Of a stretch of DNA of 37,127 nt, positions 20,139-28,282 are shown in pieces. Position numbers and translations under genes: made by a program. The DNA is from Desulfomonilia bacterium. GTDB taxonomy: Bacteria; Desulfobacterota; Desulfomonilia; UBA1062. The notes under the pieces are model-generated. The model did not search any database, was not told the origin of the DNA, and worked only from the letters and a program-made list of their open reading frames with translations. The DNA lies in assembly GCA_049275795.1 (NCBI GenBank), contig JBASVF010000098.1:1-37127 (forward strand). Direction: 5' to 3'. Numbering within the stretch: position 1 is the stretch's first letter; each line of letters starts with the position of its first letter.

Positions 20139-20930
20139 CTAGGATCGCGATCCGAGGATATCCTCGAGCTTGATCTCGGGATGGCGGTACCTACGGTACT
20201 TCCGTGTTCTTCGACCGTACTGGATCGCTTCCTGCGGACACCACTGCAGGCAGGAAAAGCACTGCTCGCACCTGTGGAGCCATACGGGCCTGCCTTCGAC
20301 GAGCTCGATGTTGTCCGCCGGGCACACCCGTTTGCAGACGCCGCACGAGTTGCAGCCCGCATCGGCCAGGAACGGCCTGTCCATAGCCGGCACCCGGCTC
20401 AATGTCATCCGATAGACGGCCGTGAAAAGCAGCCTCTGCCAGAGCGGCCCCTTTTCCACGGGCAGGCTCTCCTGCCTGCCCACGATCGATGCGATCTCAC
20501 CTATCCTGTGCTCAGCCCTTGAGAAGAGCCTTTGCTGCTTCTCCACCGGGCCCGGCCCTCCCAGGGGTATGTAGTTCGACGGCATTCTCACGTCAAAGCC
20601 TGCCGAGAGCTTCACACCCCTTTCAGCAAGGATGCGTTCGAGCTGAATCAGGGTGTTGGAGACCTGGCCCCCGTTTACCGCAACGGAAAAGGCATAGGCC
20701 CCCGGCATTACGCTCAATTCCTTGGAAAACCGCACCACCCGGCCTGGCACCCCCCAGATGTGCACCGGGAACACCAGACCCACGATCGAGGAGCCTGCGG
20801 CCTTCTCCAAGCTCCCGCGGCCTGACATGGACGCCGTGCCGGCGTCTTCGAGCCTGCCTGCAAGCAGGCGCGCCACCCACAGCGAGTTGCCGGTTCCGGT
20901 ATAGTAGAAGATCGTTGCGCTCACAGCCAT
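20139..20930 (-). CDS. EFR1-family ferredoxin (flavodoxin-like domain fused to a 2x[4Fe-4S] ferredoxin domain)
   Basis: From the ATG at 20930 (preceded by AAGGGGGGG) the N-terminus reads MAVSATIFYYTGTGNSLWVA. The C-terminal region has CNSCGVCKRVCP and CEQCFSCLQWCP. The track ORF start at 21152 is rejected. Confidence 0.85.
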   Translation of the reverse strand: MAVSATIFYYTGTGNSLWVARLLAGRLEDAGTASMSGRGSLEKAAGSSIVGLVFPVHIWGVPGRVVRFSKELSVMPGAYAFSVAVNGGQVSNTLIQLERILAERGVKLSAGFDVRMPSNYIPLGGPGPVEKQQRLFSRAEHRIGEIASIVGRQESLPVEKGPLWQRLLFTAVYRMTLSRVPAMDRPFLADAGCNSCGVCKRVCPADNIELVEGRPVWLHRCEQCFSCLQWCPQEAIQYGRRTRKYRRYRHPEIKLEDILGSRS

Positions 20931-20987
20931 CCCCCCCTTTCCCTTAAAAAGTCGTTTTCGGGTTCCCCGGGCACTGCATACCCTGCC

Positions 20988-21011
20988 ATGATGCGGCACC
21001 AGATGCATCAT
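20988..21011. promoter_or_regulatory. inverted repeat ATGATGC-N10-GCATCAT upstream of the EFR1 ferredoxin gene
   Basis: It has perfect 7-bp arms. It lies 58-81 nt upstream of the ferredoxin ATG, in the divergent intergenic region shared with the TetR gene. Confidence 0.3.
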
Positions 21012-21161
21012 ATCACGCAGTGAACTCCCGGAACACAGGCAAAGGGGCAGGCCCCGGCCCCAGTTCCATCCGTCACGGCAGGGAAACCCGTCGATCGAGA
21101 TGGACCTGCTGTGGCACCGGCCCGCCTCATCCGGGCCTGCATAAAAAATCATACACGTATA

Positions 21162-25085: not shown

Positions 25086-25230
25086 ATGCTCTCCTTTGGA
25101 ATCCTCCTTCCCGGTCCGCTGCTTCGAGAGCCTGGGAAGATATGTGACCTTCCCCCGCCGCCTGCGGCGGACCCGGGTTCAAGGCTTGCTTTCCATGCGA
25201 TTCATTGGTCGTGCGGAATTCCGCGGCAGC

Positions 25231-25554: not shown

Positions 25555-25660
25555 ACGATCACATAACGGGCGGTTGGTCTTGGACCTCTTGCCATCCGGC
25601 CGGGAAATTCATCCCGGTCCGGGGGGAGGTGCGGGCCACCCGGGCTCATACCCCGACAAT

Positions 25661-25697
25661 AAAAAAGCCCCCGCTAGGTCCGTACCCAAGCGGGGGC
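25661..25697 (-). terminator. rho-independent terminator after small protein B
   Basis: The minus strand reads GCCCCCGCT-(13-nt loop)-AGCGGGGGC followed by TTTTTTATTG. The 9-bp stem is perfect and GC-rich. It lies 34 nt after the stop at 25731. Confidence 0.75.
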
Positions 25698-25730
25698 CTG
25701 ATTTATCGAAGCTCGAACAGATCGAGCCGG

Positions 25731-25931
25731 TTACTTCATCTTCTTTTCGCCTCCAGTGAGCTCTACGAGCTCGGCGCCTGTCTTCTGGGCCATCTGCTCA
25801 AGCTCGCTCTTGCGAACGTGCCTGGCATGAACCTTCAGGTCGGCGCCCGACGAGGCTACCAGGTGGTACCGGGGCTTCTTCTCGCCCTCGTCCACCTTTC
25901 TGCGTTGACGGTAAAAAATCACTCCTGACAT
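25731..25931 (-). CDS. small charged protein (66 aa), paralog B, unknown family
   Basis: From the ATG at 25931 the sequence is MSGVIFYRQRRKVDEGEKKPRYHLVASSGADLKVHARHVRKSELEQMAQKTGAELVELTGGEKKMK. The SD GAAGGAGAA sits inside the last codons of the upstream gene, only 2 nt separate that gene's stop from this start. Confidence 0.65.
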   Translation of the reverse strand: MSGVIFYRQRRKVDEGEKKPRYHLVASSGADLKVHARHVRKSELEQMAQKTGAELVELTGGEKKMK

Positions 25932-25933
25932 GG

Positions 25934-26662
25934 CTAATTCTCCTTCTTCCTGTTTTTTCCGGCCAGGAGGGGTTTCCATCCCTGCCCGTCGTTCCTGCGG
26001 ACCGGCAGCAGGGCTCCGCCGTCCCACAGCCTTGGCCTGAGCCATCCCTGGGTATCGATCATGTCGTGAGGCCCCAACGCCGTGGCGTCCCTGTCTACCG
26101 AGATCACCATGATGCCTTTTGCCTCCAGCTCGGAGACGCTCACCACCGAAGGAATGTCACGCAGCCTGCCGTACTCGATGAACCGGCCGCTCCTTCCGTA
26201 TGCGCACAGGCCTGCCGCGGCGGCCGCACCGATGATGCCGTCGTTGGTTCCGCCGTGCCCAGAGAGATGGATCCCGCGGCAGGCTTCCATCGCCTCCTTC
26301 TGGGTCACCACCCGCTGCGAGCACCTGAGGCCGAAGTCGATGAGCCGGGCTATAGCCGGATCGTCTTCGCATGCCACGCACACCCCGGGATCGCTCCCGG
26401 GCGCTGCATGCTTCACCACGTGGTCCACGGCCCGGGATACGATCTCGGAGAGAATCGTGCGGTCCGGGACCTCGATGACGGCACACGCGGAAGAGTTGTG
26501 CGAGGTGTACGGGATCTCCTTGAGGACGGGCAGCTGGTGCCGCACCACGCCCCACAGGGAGCATCCCTTGGGAAGCTCGTTTTCGAACCAGCGGGTCAGT
26601 TTCCCGGTCCCGAAGTCGGAGTCGATGTTGTCGGTGTCATCGAAGGCTGCGAATATCTTCAT
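25934..26662 (-). CDS. stand-alone protein resembling the N-terminal kinase (TCKD) domain of archaeal tRNA(Ile2) agmatidine synthetase TiaS; function unknown
   Basis: The ATG at 26662 gives MKIFAAFDDTDNIDSDFGTGKL. The collinear motifs DDTDN, IPYTSHNSSA, DPGVCVA and NDGIIGAAAAAG parallel TiaS GIDDTDS, IPYKTRGNGA, NPGAVF and GRGLIGALAAVG as I recall them. No ferredoxin-like, OB or zinc-ribbon domain follows. Confidence 0.5.
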   Translation of the reverse strand: MKIFAAFDDTDNIDSDFGTGKLTRWFENELPKGCSLWGVVRHQLPVLKEIPYTSHNSSACAVIEVPDRTILSEIVSRAVDHVVKHAAPGSDPGVCVACEDDPAIARLIDFGLRCSQRVVTQKEAMEACRGIHLSGHGGTNDGIIGAAAAAGLCAYGRSGRFIEYGRLRDIPSVVSVSELEAKGIMVISVDRDATALGPHDMIDTQGWLRPRLWDGGALLPVRRNDGQGWKPLLAGKNRKKEN

Positions 26663-26684
26663 GGTGCTCGGTTTCCTCTCGGGT

Positions 26685-26725
26685 GTATTGTTCTCTCGTG
26701 CCGCAGGAACACGATGGAACAATAC
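26685..26725. promoter_or_regulatory. 41-nt inverted repeat (9-bp perfect outer arms GTATTGTTC/GAACAATAC plus inner TCGTG/CACGA) abutting the SD of the TiaS-like gene
   Basis: GTATTGTTC lies at 26685-26693 and GAACAATAC at 26717-26725. The inner pair lies at 26696-26700 and 26710-26714. The element lies 23-63 nt upstream of the ATG at 26662. Confidence 0.4.
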
Positions 26726-27037
26726 TACACCATCATATTAGGTGTGCTGGTGTCAATACTCATCGGCCTTGCGGAAGACATCCGCTCCTGCCCGGTGCGA
26801 TCCTCCTCCAGAGTTCGGAACCCGGGAGCTGACGTGCCTCAGCCGGGCAAGCGCCCGGGCGCTTCACTGCATGGAGAGCCTCACCCGGGACCTCGGCATC
26901 CTGCACCACGAGGGGAGCTCATGGGAGGGATGACGCCGGCCTTTCACGCCGGTGTCCCCGGCATGGGGTTTCCCGCTCGAGGCCGACGGCCCGTCTGCAG
27001 GCAGGCATGCTTGGAGGGGCGGGCCCCGGCGGCCCGC

Positions 27038-28282
27038 TCACCCCTGCTCGAGCCTGCGGGGTGCGGGCTCGCCCGCCCCGGGATCCGCGGCGAGGCGGGT
27101 ATGATCAATCGAGAAGTCATGTGAGCGAGTACCCCTCGAGGCATAGGTGAGCACCGCCGCAAAAGCCAGGGAAACGAGCGTTGCGAAGAACATGCCCCGG
27201 TAGCCGATGAGCTCCGCGACGAAGCCCCAGAGGATCGTTCCCAGGCCGATGCCCAGGTCCAAGGCAATGAAGAAGGTCCCGGTGGCTGCACCTCGCCTTT
27301 TGGCCGGCACTCCCCGCACGGCCATGGCCTGCAGTGTGGGGATGCAGAAGCCCAACCCCAGGCCCAGGAAACCTCCTGCCACCGTGAAATGCATGGCCTT
27401 GGTGGAAAGCCCCAGGGCCGTGATACCCATGAGCATGGCGATGTGGGCGACGATCAGGATCTTGTTCGTTCCTCCCCTGTCGGCCAGCCTTCCCGAGTAG
27501 ACCCGGGTGACCAGCATGGTCAAGGCAATGGCCGTGAAGAACGGGCCGATGTTTGCCACGCCCTGCTCGGCTGCGAACAGCGCCACATACGAGAGCACGG
27601 CCCCGTAGATGACGTTGACGAAGAACATGATCCCTGCCGCAGGCAGGGCCCTTTTCTCCAGGAATCCCGACCAGGCGGGTTTGAGGGGAGGATCGCGCTT
27701 TGCGATGAGGTGGTCGGTGCTCTGTACCGCGAGGCTCAGGCCGAAGGCGAGCAGGGTCGCCAGGACCACTGCGTTGAACAGCACAGGGAAGCCTGCCGCG
27801 GTCACCAGCCAGAAGCCAACCATGGGGGTGATCGCCATGGAGAGCGAGGCCATGACTCCGAAGTACCCCATGCCCTCGCTGAAGCGCTCGGTCGGGAGCA
27901 GATCGGCCGCAATGGTTCTCAAGGCCGTTCCGACCACGCCGAACGCCACGCCGTGCAGCCCGCGGATCACCAGCATCATGCCCTCGTGGGTGGCATACCG
28001 GTAAAAGACGGAGATGACCGCAGCCGCCAGGAGGGCTGCCAGTACGATCTTCTTGCGGCCCATGCTGTCGAGGAGCTTCCCGGCAATGGGACGCGTAACC
28101 AGGGCGCCGATCGTGTAGGCCCCCATCACGTACCCCACGTCCCGGCTGCCCCCGCCGATCTGCTGCAGGTACAGCGGAAGGGTGGGCGTGATCATGTGCG
28201 TGCTCATGAAAAACAGGAGGTTTGCAAAGCACAGCGAGGTGAAATTCCTGGTCCAGATGGCTGCGGGTGCTCGAGTTGTCAT
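27038..28282 (-). CDS. MFS transporter (12-TM type)
   Basis: From the ATG at 28282 the N-terminus reads MTTRAPAAIWTRNFTSLCFANLLFFMSTHMITPTLPLYL. The MFS loop motif is GKLLDSMGRKK, and the protein is hydrophobic throughout. The extended track start at 28549 is non-coding-like (Arg-rich). Confidence 0.9.
   Translation of the reverse strand: MTTRAPAAIWTRNFTSLCFANLLFFMSTHMITPTLPLYLQQIGGGSRDVGYVMGAYTIGALVTRPIAGKLLDSMGRKKIVLAALLAAAVISVFYRYATHEGMMLVIRGLHGVAFGVVGTALRTIAADLLPTERFSEGMGYFGVMASLSMAITPMVGFWLVTAAGFPVLFNAVVLATLLAFGLSLAVQSTDHLIAKRDPPLKPAWSGFLEKRALPAAGIMFFVNVIYGAVLSYVALFAAEQGVANIGPFFTAIALTMLVTRVYSGRLADRGGTNKILIVAHIAMLMGITALGLSTKAMHFTVAGGFLGLGLGFCIPTLQAMAVRGVPAKRRGAATGTFFIALDLGIGLGTILWGFVAELIGYRGMFFATLVSLAFAAVLTYASRGTRSHDFSIDHTRLAADPGAGEPAPRRLEQG

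Follow-up and report, generated by a model that had tools for sequence, protein, structure and literature searches.

A bacterial protein with a TiaS-type kinase fold belongs to a conserved three-gene module with a one-subunit MoSto-like protein and is a candidate for tungstate or molybdate handling

We analyzed a 37,127-nucleotide stretch of DNA from a Desulfomonilia bacterium (contig JBASVF010000098.1 of assembly GCA_049275795.1, positions 1 to 37,127; hereafter the window), which encodes a 242-aa protein with the kinase fold of the archaeal tRNA enzyme TiaS. Its gene lies close to genes for two small paralogous proteins (S1 and S2, members of a family here called S) and for a 275-aa homolog of the molybdenum storage protein, MoSto. 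The triad formed by the enzyme, S and the MoSto-like protein recurs among relatives. With moderate confidence, we propose that the protein is not a tRNA enzyme and that it serves, as an ATP-using accessory enzyme, a conserved module of three genes by which Thermodesulfobacteriota handle and store tungstate/molybdate.

The enzyme comprises an N-terminal TiaS-type kinase domain of ~160 residues, a beta-rich C-terminal domain of ~80 residues and a basic tail. The original prediction, made from the DNA sequence alone, had likened the protein to the Thr18-Cyt34 kinase domain (TCKD) of TiaS and had named profile and structure searches as tests; both bear the likeness out. A profile built from 29 homologs matched TiaS in the PDB (3au7, 4rvz and 3amt, E = 1.1-1.3e-5), with profile positions 1-159 aligned to TiaS residues 1-158, the precise extent of the TCKD. 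The AlphaFold2 model of the enzyme (pLDDT 86, pTM 0.86) was compared with the PDB by Foldseek, and the top nine matches are all TiaS chains. The best is 5xob (E = 4.4e-8, probability 1.00); the structural alignments span 161-164 columns at a root mean square deviation of ~3 Å, and the best matches other than TiaS have E ~1e-2. No other characterised family rivals TiaS in the profile and structure searches. We conclude that the enzyme has the TiaS-kinase fold with the TCKD catalytic core motifs.

The relationship is a distant one. Searches with the single sequence against PDB, Pfam and NCBIfam gave sub-threshold matches only, and none in the PDB. Against the Pfam model PF22641 (TiaS_TCKD) the enzyme scores 14 bits (E = 0.052) and does not reach the gathering threshold of 27 bits; 22 of the 29 relatives also give sub-threshold matches (best E = 4.3e-4). 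Because the scores stay below this threshold, we regard the enzyme family as a distant sister of the curated TiaS_TCKD family, not a member as now defined. The family is large: clustering at 90% identity leaves 2453 clusters, and at 50% identity there are 955 representatives (E <= 1e-3), nearly all of ~245 aa. Public records list its members as hypothetical proteins and occasionally, in some JGI records, as ‘TiaS’. A weak NCBIfam match links residues 21-153 of the enzyme to positions 152-283 of the model for methanogenesis marker protein 11 (TIGR03280, E = 0.072), an archaeal protein that may also hold a TCKD-like domain.

Four collinear motifs that had drawn attention to the open reading frame (ORF), DDTDN (residues 8-12), IPYTSHNSSA (50-59), DPGV (91-94) and NDGIIGAAAAAG (140-151), occupy invariant or near-invariant columns of the family alignment. 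We assessed conservation in an alignment of 112 diverse family representatives (29-54% identity to the window enzyme) together with the window enzyme and the TiaS TCKD. Residues in common with TiaS include D8-D9-T10-D11 (95-96% conserved among the 113 family members), T19 (97%), R41 (94%), P92-G93 and G142/I144/G145/A146/A148. T19 aligns with Thr18 of TiaS, the residue that TiaS autophosphorylates. The four motifs singled out at first thus belong to the genuine TCKD core. The collinear motifs common to both proteins are G-x-DDTD, the Thr18 equivalent, R41, IPY.T, (D/N)PG and G.G.IGA.AAVG, and Mg-ATP binding is presumed because fold and motifs match those of TiaS.

The differences from TiaS (Archaeoglobus fulgidus; PDB 3AMT/3AMU/3AU7/4RVZ/5XOB) are considerable. 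Identity is only 17-24%, and the family has near-invariant residues of its own where TiaS differs (T53, N56, S57, D91, C95 and G159-R160, joined by H55, C60 and H132 among close relatives). The bacterial enzyme is 242 aa long, compared with 402-440 residues in the crystallised chains of archaeal TiaS (native 420). Structural alignments cover only ~160 columns, and the ferredoxin-like, OB and zinc-ribbon domains of TiaS are absent, as the original prediction had stated. In their place the enzyme has its unrelated beta domain and basic tail. A profile of the C-terminal ~80 residues found no match in the PDB, and no RNA-binding domain was detected by Pfam, structure alignment or this C-terminal profile. 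Since the tRNA-binding domains are missing, the enzyme is not a TiaS. Its gene context also differs, being one of tungsten/molybdenum uptake and storage instead of translation, and speaks against the reaction of TiaS, a tRNA(Ile2) 2-agmatinylcytidine synthetase that joins agmatine to C34 of tRNA(Ile2).

Part of this context is the 275-aa protein. MoSto of Azotobacter vinelandii is an ATP-dependent (alpha-beta)3 cage that holds Mo or W as polyoxometalate clusters. In PDB searches the 275-aa protein matches MoSto subunit beta (2ogx_B) at E = 1.3e-64 and MosA (alpha) at E = 1.5e-45, compared with E = 1e-8 or weaker for UMP kinases and true kinases of the family; the Pfam AA_kinase match has E = 1.4e-25. 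It is 44% identical to MosB over its full length, it retains the amino-acid-kinase nucleotide motifs KIGGQS, GGGTRxRH, RTD and KDExGL, and in public records it carries the label ‘molybdenum storage protein (subunit beta)’. At the level of sequence, these comparisons establish homology to MoSto, closer to the beta than to the alpha subunit.

The genetic arrangement departs from that of MoSto, in which adjacent mosA and mosB genes encode an (alpha-beta)3 heterohexamer. Each locus of the module carries one MoSto-like gene, beta-like in both of the gene orders described below, in place of the two subunits of MoSto. For comparison we examined 80 metagenomic loci with canonical MoSto (82-91% identity to A. 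vinelandii MosB). Two tandem subunit genes are present in 56 of these 80 loci, and a TCKD-like gene or S in none of the 80. By contrast, the one-subunit form always comes with S and nearly always with the TCKD-like enzyme. It occurs in strict anaerobes beside tungstate transporters, and not in aerobic diazotrophs. MoSto is known to store tungsten besides molybdenum (PMC4504029, PMC6448029), its alpha subunit uses His156/Glu129 as cluster ligands (PMC4504029), and a paper from 2019 stated that it has no known homologs (PMC6448029).

We scanned one genome per GTDB species, found a relative of the enzyme in 248 species, and studied the loci of the best 80 of these 248. Almost all of the fetched loci are from metagenome-assembled genomes of Desulfomonilia, Syntrophales, Syntrophobacterales, Desulfobacterales and Syntrophorhabdus. 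Counts for the triad and its neighbours are from tblastn; our own ORF calls are noisy in GC-rich loci. Downstream sequence of 2.5 kb or more is available for 63 unique loci; among these, S was found in 52 and S together with the MoSto-like gene in 50. In the two loci with S that lack a MoSto-like match, the gene is frameshifted in one and the contig ends in the other. S starts within 60 nt of the enzyme stop codon in 40 of the 80 unique loci. The enzyme and the small ORF thus form a real and conserved pair, in line with the other test that the original prediction had named, and what had been overlooked is the larger unit, which takes in S2, the MoSto-beta-like gene and, across genomes, genes for tungsten/molybdenum uptake. 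This wider unit narrows the earlier proposal of a new substrate towards tungsten/molybdenum handling.

S immediately adjoins the MoSto-like gene wherever a locus has both. The MoSto-like gene runs in the same direction as the enzyme gene in 44 loci, in most of them in the order TCKD-S-MoSto. In another 18 loci, mostly from Syntrophobacteraceae, it is convergent, and in most of these a PadR-like gene separates the enzyme gene from S. As two gene orders exist, the neighbourhood survives rearrangement. We also approached the association from the opposite side: three MoSto-like proteins chosen only by their similarity to that of the window led to five places, and in all five the TCKD-like gene and S lie directly upstream. 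S is tied more strictly to the MoSto-like gene than to the enzyme gene; a locus in which S or the MoSto-like gene is found almost always has both.

The PadR-family gene between the enzyme gene and S is on the opposite strand (locus L013, 5747-6148, minus strand; also L014, L017, L020, L022, L028 and others), and in these loci the MoSto-like gene is convergent with S. The PadR-family protein is a candidate for a dedicated regulator of the module.

S1 and S2 are 59% identical and belong to one orphan family. Its core of ~58 residues is basic and extremely conserved, including an invariant His38 and a GEKKPR loop, with the consensus M-A-G-K-I-F-Y-R-E-R-x-K-V-x-E-G-E-K-K-P-R-F-x-L-V-A-V-A-G-...-K-H-L-R-K-S-E-L-E-Q-I-A. 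The core is followed by a charged tail that varies in length, sequence and charge and often ends in (D/E)(D/E)VEV. The window lineage and six close relatives carry a duplication of S. In the six relatives an S1-type copy lies 7-13 nt after the enzyme gene and an S2-type copy precedes the MoSto-like gene; S1-type copies end in GGEKKMK or similar, without the acidic tail. S2 represents the ancestral-type copy, which in other genomes precedes the MoSto-like gene. The retention of S1 with the enzyme and of S2 with the MoSto-like gene suggests that S makes contact with both partners.

AlphaFold2 predicts a beta-beta-beta-alpha-beta arrangement for S with moderate confidence (pLDDT 75) and a disordered tail. 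We considered from the pattern of strands, compared by eye, that S might be a divergent Mop/TOBE molbindin, and this was not supported by Pfam, PDB profile or Foldseek searches. Specifically, the Pfam TOBE model (PF03459) gave no match in 26 S proteins at E-values up to 10, and no Mop, ModE or ModG chain appeared in the PDB profile or Foldseek results. Molbindins of the Mop/Tub type are ~70-aa TOBE-domain proteins for molybdate/tungstate storage, such as Tub of Eubacterium limosum (PMC11980592). S resembles them in its size, in being a small stand-alone protein and in its tungsten/molybdenum gene context. It differs in the lack of any detected sequence or structural relation and in its predicted beta3-alpha-beta fold with a disordered charged tail.

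Genes for uptake of tungstate or molybdate recur around the enzyme gene in relatives. Recurrent neighbours encode TupA-like binding proteins, TupB-like permeases, WtpC-like ATPases, molybdate transporters of the MFS_MOT1 type and PadR-like regulators, and a WtpA neighbour scores 437 bits (NCBIfam cutoff 355). Also recurrent are regulators with HTH_17 and PBP_like domains, the domain arrangement found in TunR, a family of tungstate-responsive regulators. One or more of TupA-like, WtpA, TupB-like, MOT1 or a TunR-like regulator is encoded in 38 of the 80 loci. The enzyme gene directly follows a transporter ATPase gene in 17 of 65 loci, and the operon form of this arrangement reads regulator-tupA-tupB-ATPase-TCKD-S-MoSto. 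Porin_O_P was found in some loci. To judge from the families represented, the neighbours lean to tungstate (Tup/Wtp rather than ModA).

In the window, the MoSto-like gene faces a convergent gene for a molybdenum/tungsten oxidoreductase with Fe4S4, Molybdopterin and Molydop_binding domains. Its match to the formate dehydrogenase alpha subunit has E = 3e-73 and lies below the equivalog cutoff. Genes of the formate dehydrogenase type stand beside the triad in relatives as well (L176-L179). A gene for a 4Fe-4S protein (20139-21152, minus strand) is found near the window oxidoreductase. A YqeC-family gene lies ~1.5 kb upstream of one triad (L175, 680-1486); YqeC is an accessory protein linked to the maturation of selenium-dependent molybdenum hydroxylases, and this neighbour is a hint of a cofactor-maturation context.

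An alternative context of the enzyme gene, found for a minority of orthologs and for distant family members, comprises genes for a TonB-dependent receptor, an ABC/ECF-type ATPase, an EcfT/CbiQ-like T component and a multi-pass membrane protein of ~190 aa. It was seen in L029, L032, L035, L044, L068 and L080, and around the distant family members of L085, L167 and L169. The membrane protein (cluster c21) has no Pfam match and is weakly related to a 196-aa protein beside a Bacteroidota-like distant homolog. L080 combines the TonB/ECF-type context with tup genes, with S and MoSto farther on, and L035 has a TunR-like gene. The alternative context may represent an unrecognised ECF-type uptake system.

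Several observations weigh against a role in tungstate/molybdate storage. The TupA-, TupB- and WtpC-like neighbours score below the NCBIfam equivalog cutoffs, and for this reason the lean to tungstate over molybdate is tentative. A tblastn search of the window with representatives of the recurrent neighbours, including Tup, Wtp, TunR and MOT1, found none of them; the window's own link to tungsten/molybdenum comes from the MoSto-like gene, the convergent oxidoreductase and the relatives. Rfam searches near the module, with gathering as well as permissive thresholds, detected neither a Moco/Wco riboswitch nor any other RNA family. Foldseek, PDB profile and Pfam searches with S gave no significant fold or family match and no metal-binding relative. 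That the one-subunit MoSto-like protein would form a cage and store metal is itself an argument by analogy with A. vinelandii. As to the substrate of the enzyme, S is missing from 11 of the 63 well-flanked loci; several of these, like the distant family members (29-37% identity), are TonB/ECF-type uptake loci in which no S or MoSto was seen, and they speak against S as the substrate. The contigs of the distant members are short, so the absence of S and MoSto around them is weak evidence.

Given the analyses presented above, we infer the following working for the proposed module. Tungstate or molybdate would be taken up by ABC transporters of the Tup/Wtp type, by MOT1 or, in certain genomes, by the TonB-receptor/ECF-like system, with TunR-like or PadR-like regulators controlling uptake. 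The single beta-type MoSto homolog would assemble into a homo-oligomeric cage and deposit polyoxometalates in an ATP-driven manner, as A. vinelandii MoSto does. The basic ~58-residue core of S may act as a dedicated small subunit or chaperone of this one-subunit, alpha-less cage. The TCKD-like enzyme would bind Mg-ATP through its conserved DDTD/Thr/Arg/GxIGAxA core, with a putative family-specific pocket lined by T53, N56, S57, D91, C95 and G159-R160, and in the close family also by H55, C60 and H132. Acting after uptake and before the metal is stored or supplied to cofactors, it would process the imported oxyanion, or a carrier of it. It would do so by phosphoryl or adenylyl activation, in the way that TiaS activates a carbonyl oxygen.

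A bolder form of this proposal is a tentative possibility. The enzyme might be the first member of the TiaS-kinase fold with a non-RNA substrate, using ATP to activate tungstate, molybdate or an imported chelate, which would then pass via S to a homomeric MoSto-type cage. In syntrophic and sulfate-reducing anaerobes, the three components would in that case form a dedicated machine for tungsten storage that differs from MosAB as well as from the TOBE-type Mop/Tub proteins.

Alternatively, the enzyme may be a protein kinase or ligase that phosphorylates S or modifies it in another ATP-dependent manner, for example at His38 or the GEKKPR loop, switching S between states that gate loading or release of the MoSto-like protein. 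We consider this unlikely, and it stays alive because of the tight coupling of the enzyme and S genes, which are 2 nt apart in the window, and because after the duplication one S copy remained with the enzyme, its own terminator behind it. The equivalent of the threonine that is autophosphorylated in TiaS is retained across the family, and the extreme conservation of the S core, with its invariant histidine and basic residues, would suit a substrate. Orthologs at 53-57% identity and distant members are nevertheless found in uptake loci with no S within 5 kb, and the variable tail of S provides no conserved acceptor. A small-molecule or oxyanion substrate is favoured over S, since the enzymes of loci without S, including the distant members, keep the family-specific residues, and since S follows the MoSto-like gene more closely than the enzyme. 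This distribution casts S more as a partner to the MoSto-like protein and less as a universal substrate of the enzyme.

Two further readings are poorly supported. One, which we regard as very unlikely, is a carrier pathway like that of LysW/LysX/LysZ, in which the enzyme would attach a substrate to S and the amino acid kinase family protein would phosphorylate it, leading to a small molecule such as a metal chelator or the precursor of a cofactor. In formal terms the components correspond, as there are an amino acid kinase family protein, a ~70-aa protein that is often acidic-tailed and an ATP-dependent activating enzyme. However, the kinase-family protein is specifically a MoSto homolog, and not N-acetylglutamate-kinase-like, and the activating enzyme has the TCKD fold instead of ATP-grasp. 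The conserved core of S has no cysteines for a LysW-type zinc ribbon, and its tail has no conserved sequence, terminus or acidic C-terminal acceptor and is lacking in S1-type copies. No further biosynthetic genes recur nearby, but tungsten/molybdenum transport and regulator genes do. The other reading, hardly credible to us, is that of a minimal bacterial TiaS analog that modifies tRNA or another RNA, with S as an RNA-binding cofactor in place of the OB and zinc-ribbon domains. The sole characterised TCKD proteins do modify tRNA, the C-terminal tail of the enzyme and the S core are both basic, and the ‘TiaS’ labels in JGI records would agree with such a role. Against it stand the lack of a detectable RNA-binding domain and a neighbourhood in which transport, storage and regulation of tungsten/molybdenum recur and tRNA or RNA-metabolism genes do not. 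In addition, lysidine made by TilS decodes AUA in bacteria, and the phyletic spread of the family is narrow and tied to tungsten-using anaerobes.

All features of the module are on the minus strand of the window (Table 1). The enzyme ORF begins MKIFAAFDDTDN. The start sites of the enzyme and S1 were set by alignments of homologs, and the homologs of the enzyme all start with MKIF or MRIY. The longer ORFs of a mechanical list (one of 262 aa starting at TTG, the other of 104 aa) find no support in these alignments, and the TTG start is rejected because every homolog alignment begins at MKIF/MRIY. The coupling of the two genes described in the original prediction is seen in the coordinates: the TAG stop codon of the enzyme (25936..25934) lies 2 nt before the ATG of S1 (25931..25929), which has its Shine-Dalgarno (SD) sequence, AAGGAG, within the final codons of the enzyme gene. 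S2 starts ~290 nt 3' of S1, and the MoSto-like gene follows after another ~145 nt.

Table 1. Features of the module and adjacent genes in the window
Feature	Position	Strand	Remarks
5' leader hairpin, 41-nt inverted repeat	26725..26685	-	immediately 5' of enzyme SD
TCKD-like enzyme gene, 242 aa	26662..25934	-	stand-alone TiaS-type kinase domain + C-terminal domain
Small protein S1 gene, 66 aa	25931..25731	-	2-nt gap after enzyme stop
Intrinsic terminator 3' of S1	~25699..25657	-	GC-rich stem then UUUUUUAUU
Small protein S2 gene, 70 aa	25443..25231	-	S1 paralog, acidic tail DEDVEV
Single MoSto-like subunit gene, 275 aa	25085..24258	-	amino acid kinase family
MFS transporter gene	27038..28276	-	Pfam MFS_1 E = 7e-47; directly upstream of enzyme gene
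Mo/W bis-pterin oxidoreductase gene, 758 aa	21914..24190	+	formate dehydrogenase alpha type

The strong terminator noted after the small ORF is present as the hairpin GGCCCCCGCU...AGCGGGGGC followed by UUUUUUAUU, and the region folds at -48.6 kcal/mol in a 96-nt context (z = -4.6). A simple pattern scan for sigma-70 promoters and terminators found no promoter and overlooked this terminator because its loop exceeds 8 nt. The 41-nt inverted repeat that abuts the enzyme SD was likewise confirmed, and the enzyme leader folds at -29.8 kcal/mol (z = -4.75), with none of 200 shuffled sequences as stable. A similar hairpin, of the form GUUC(C)...(G)GAAC around an inner stem that varies, occupies the same place in most of the six close relatives. 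It has no statistical support and no clean covariation in the relatives, where the single folds are only loosely alike, and RNAalifold, applied to seven close relatives, yielded neither a consensus structure nor compensatory pairs. A conserved riboswitch in the enzyme leader, which we considered as a candidate, is therefore unsupported.

A box GTATTGACAC(A/C) occurs ~75-85 nt 5' of the enzyme ATG (26700-26740 in the window, minus strand) and is kept in all close relatives (L001, L005-L009 and L011); several of them have a good TTGACA-N17-TATxxT promoter farther 5' of it. The box could be an oddly spaced -35 element or an operator. The spacer between S2 and the MoSto-like gene (25086-25230, minus strand, 145 nt) contains a GC-rich inverted repeat, CCGCCGCAGGCGGCGG, without a U-tract, which could adjust the ratio of S2 to MoSto as an attenuator or a processing site. 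The MFS transporter gene is also found upstream in contigs of identical sequence, and relatives have other genes there; a functional tie of this transporter to the module is possible. In the closest relatives (L005, L006, L008, L009 and L011), though not in the window, a DDE_5 transposase gene (407 aa, E = 8e-48) lies on the opposite strand directly upstream of the enzyme gene, and rearrangements seem to be concentrated at this upstream boundary of the module. Searches with PADLOC and PHROGs returned no matches, so that an origin as a defence system or phage is unsupported.

Literature searches combining MoSto with TiaS, on MoSto in syntrophs and on bacterial TiaS-like proteins found no link between a TCKD-like protein and MoSto and no bacterial stand-alone TCKD family, in line with the earlier statement that no characterised bacterial system has this architecture. 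What sets the finding apart is a one-subunit system of the MoSto type joined by two new partners, and there is a real possibility that the chemistry of the enzyme is new as well. All three proteins are small and soluble, so that the hypothesis is directly testable. Tungsten enzymes, such as formate dehydrogenases, aldehyde oxidoreductases and class II benzoyl-CoA reductase, hold a central place in the turnover of carbon by syntrophic and anaerobic life. The module is a widespread candidate for a second, ATP-dependent route, as the enzyme is encoded in at least 248 species-level genomes. If our proposal is correct, the MoSto cage would exist in a one-subunit form with two partners of an uncharacterised kind, and the TCKD fold, so far from one archaeal tRNA enzyme, would gain a large bacterial family with a different job.

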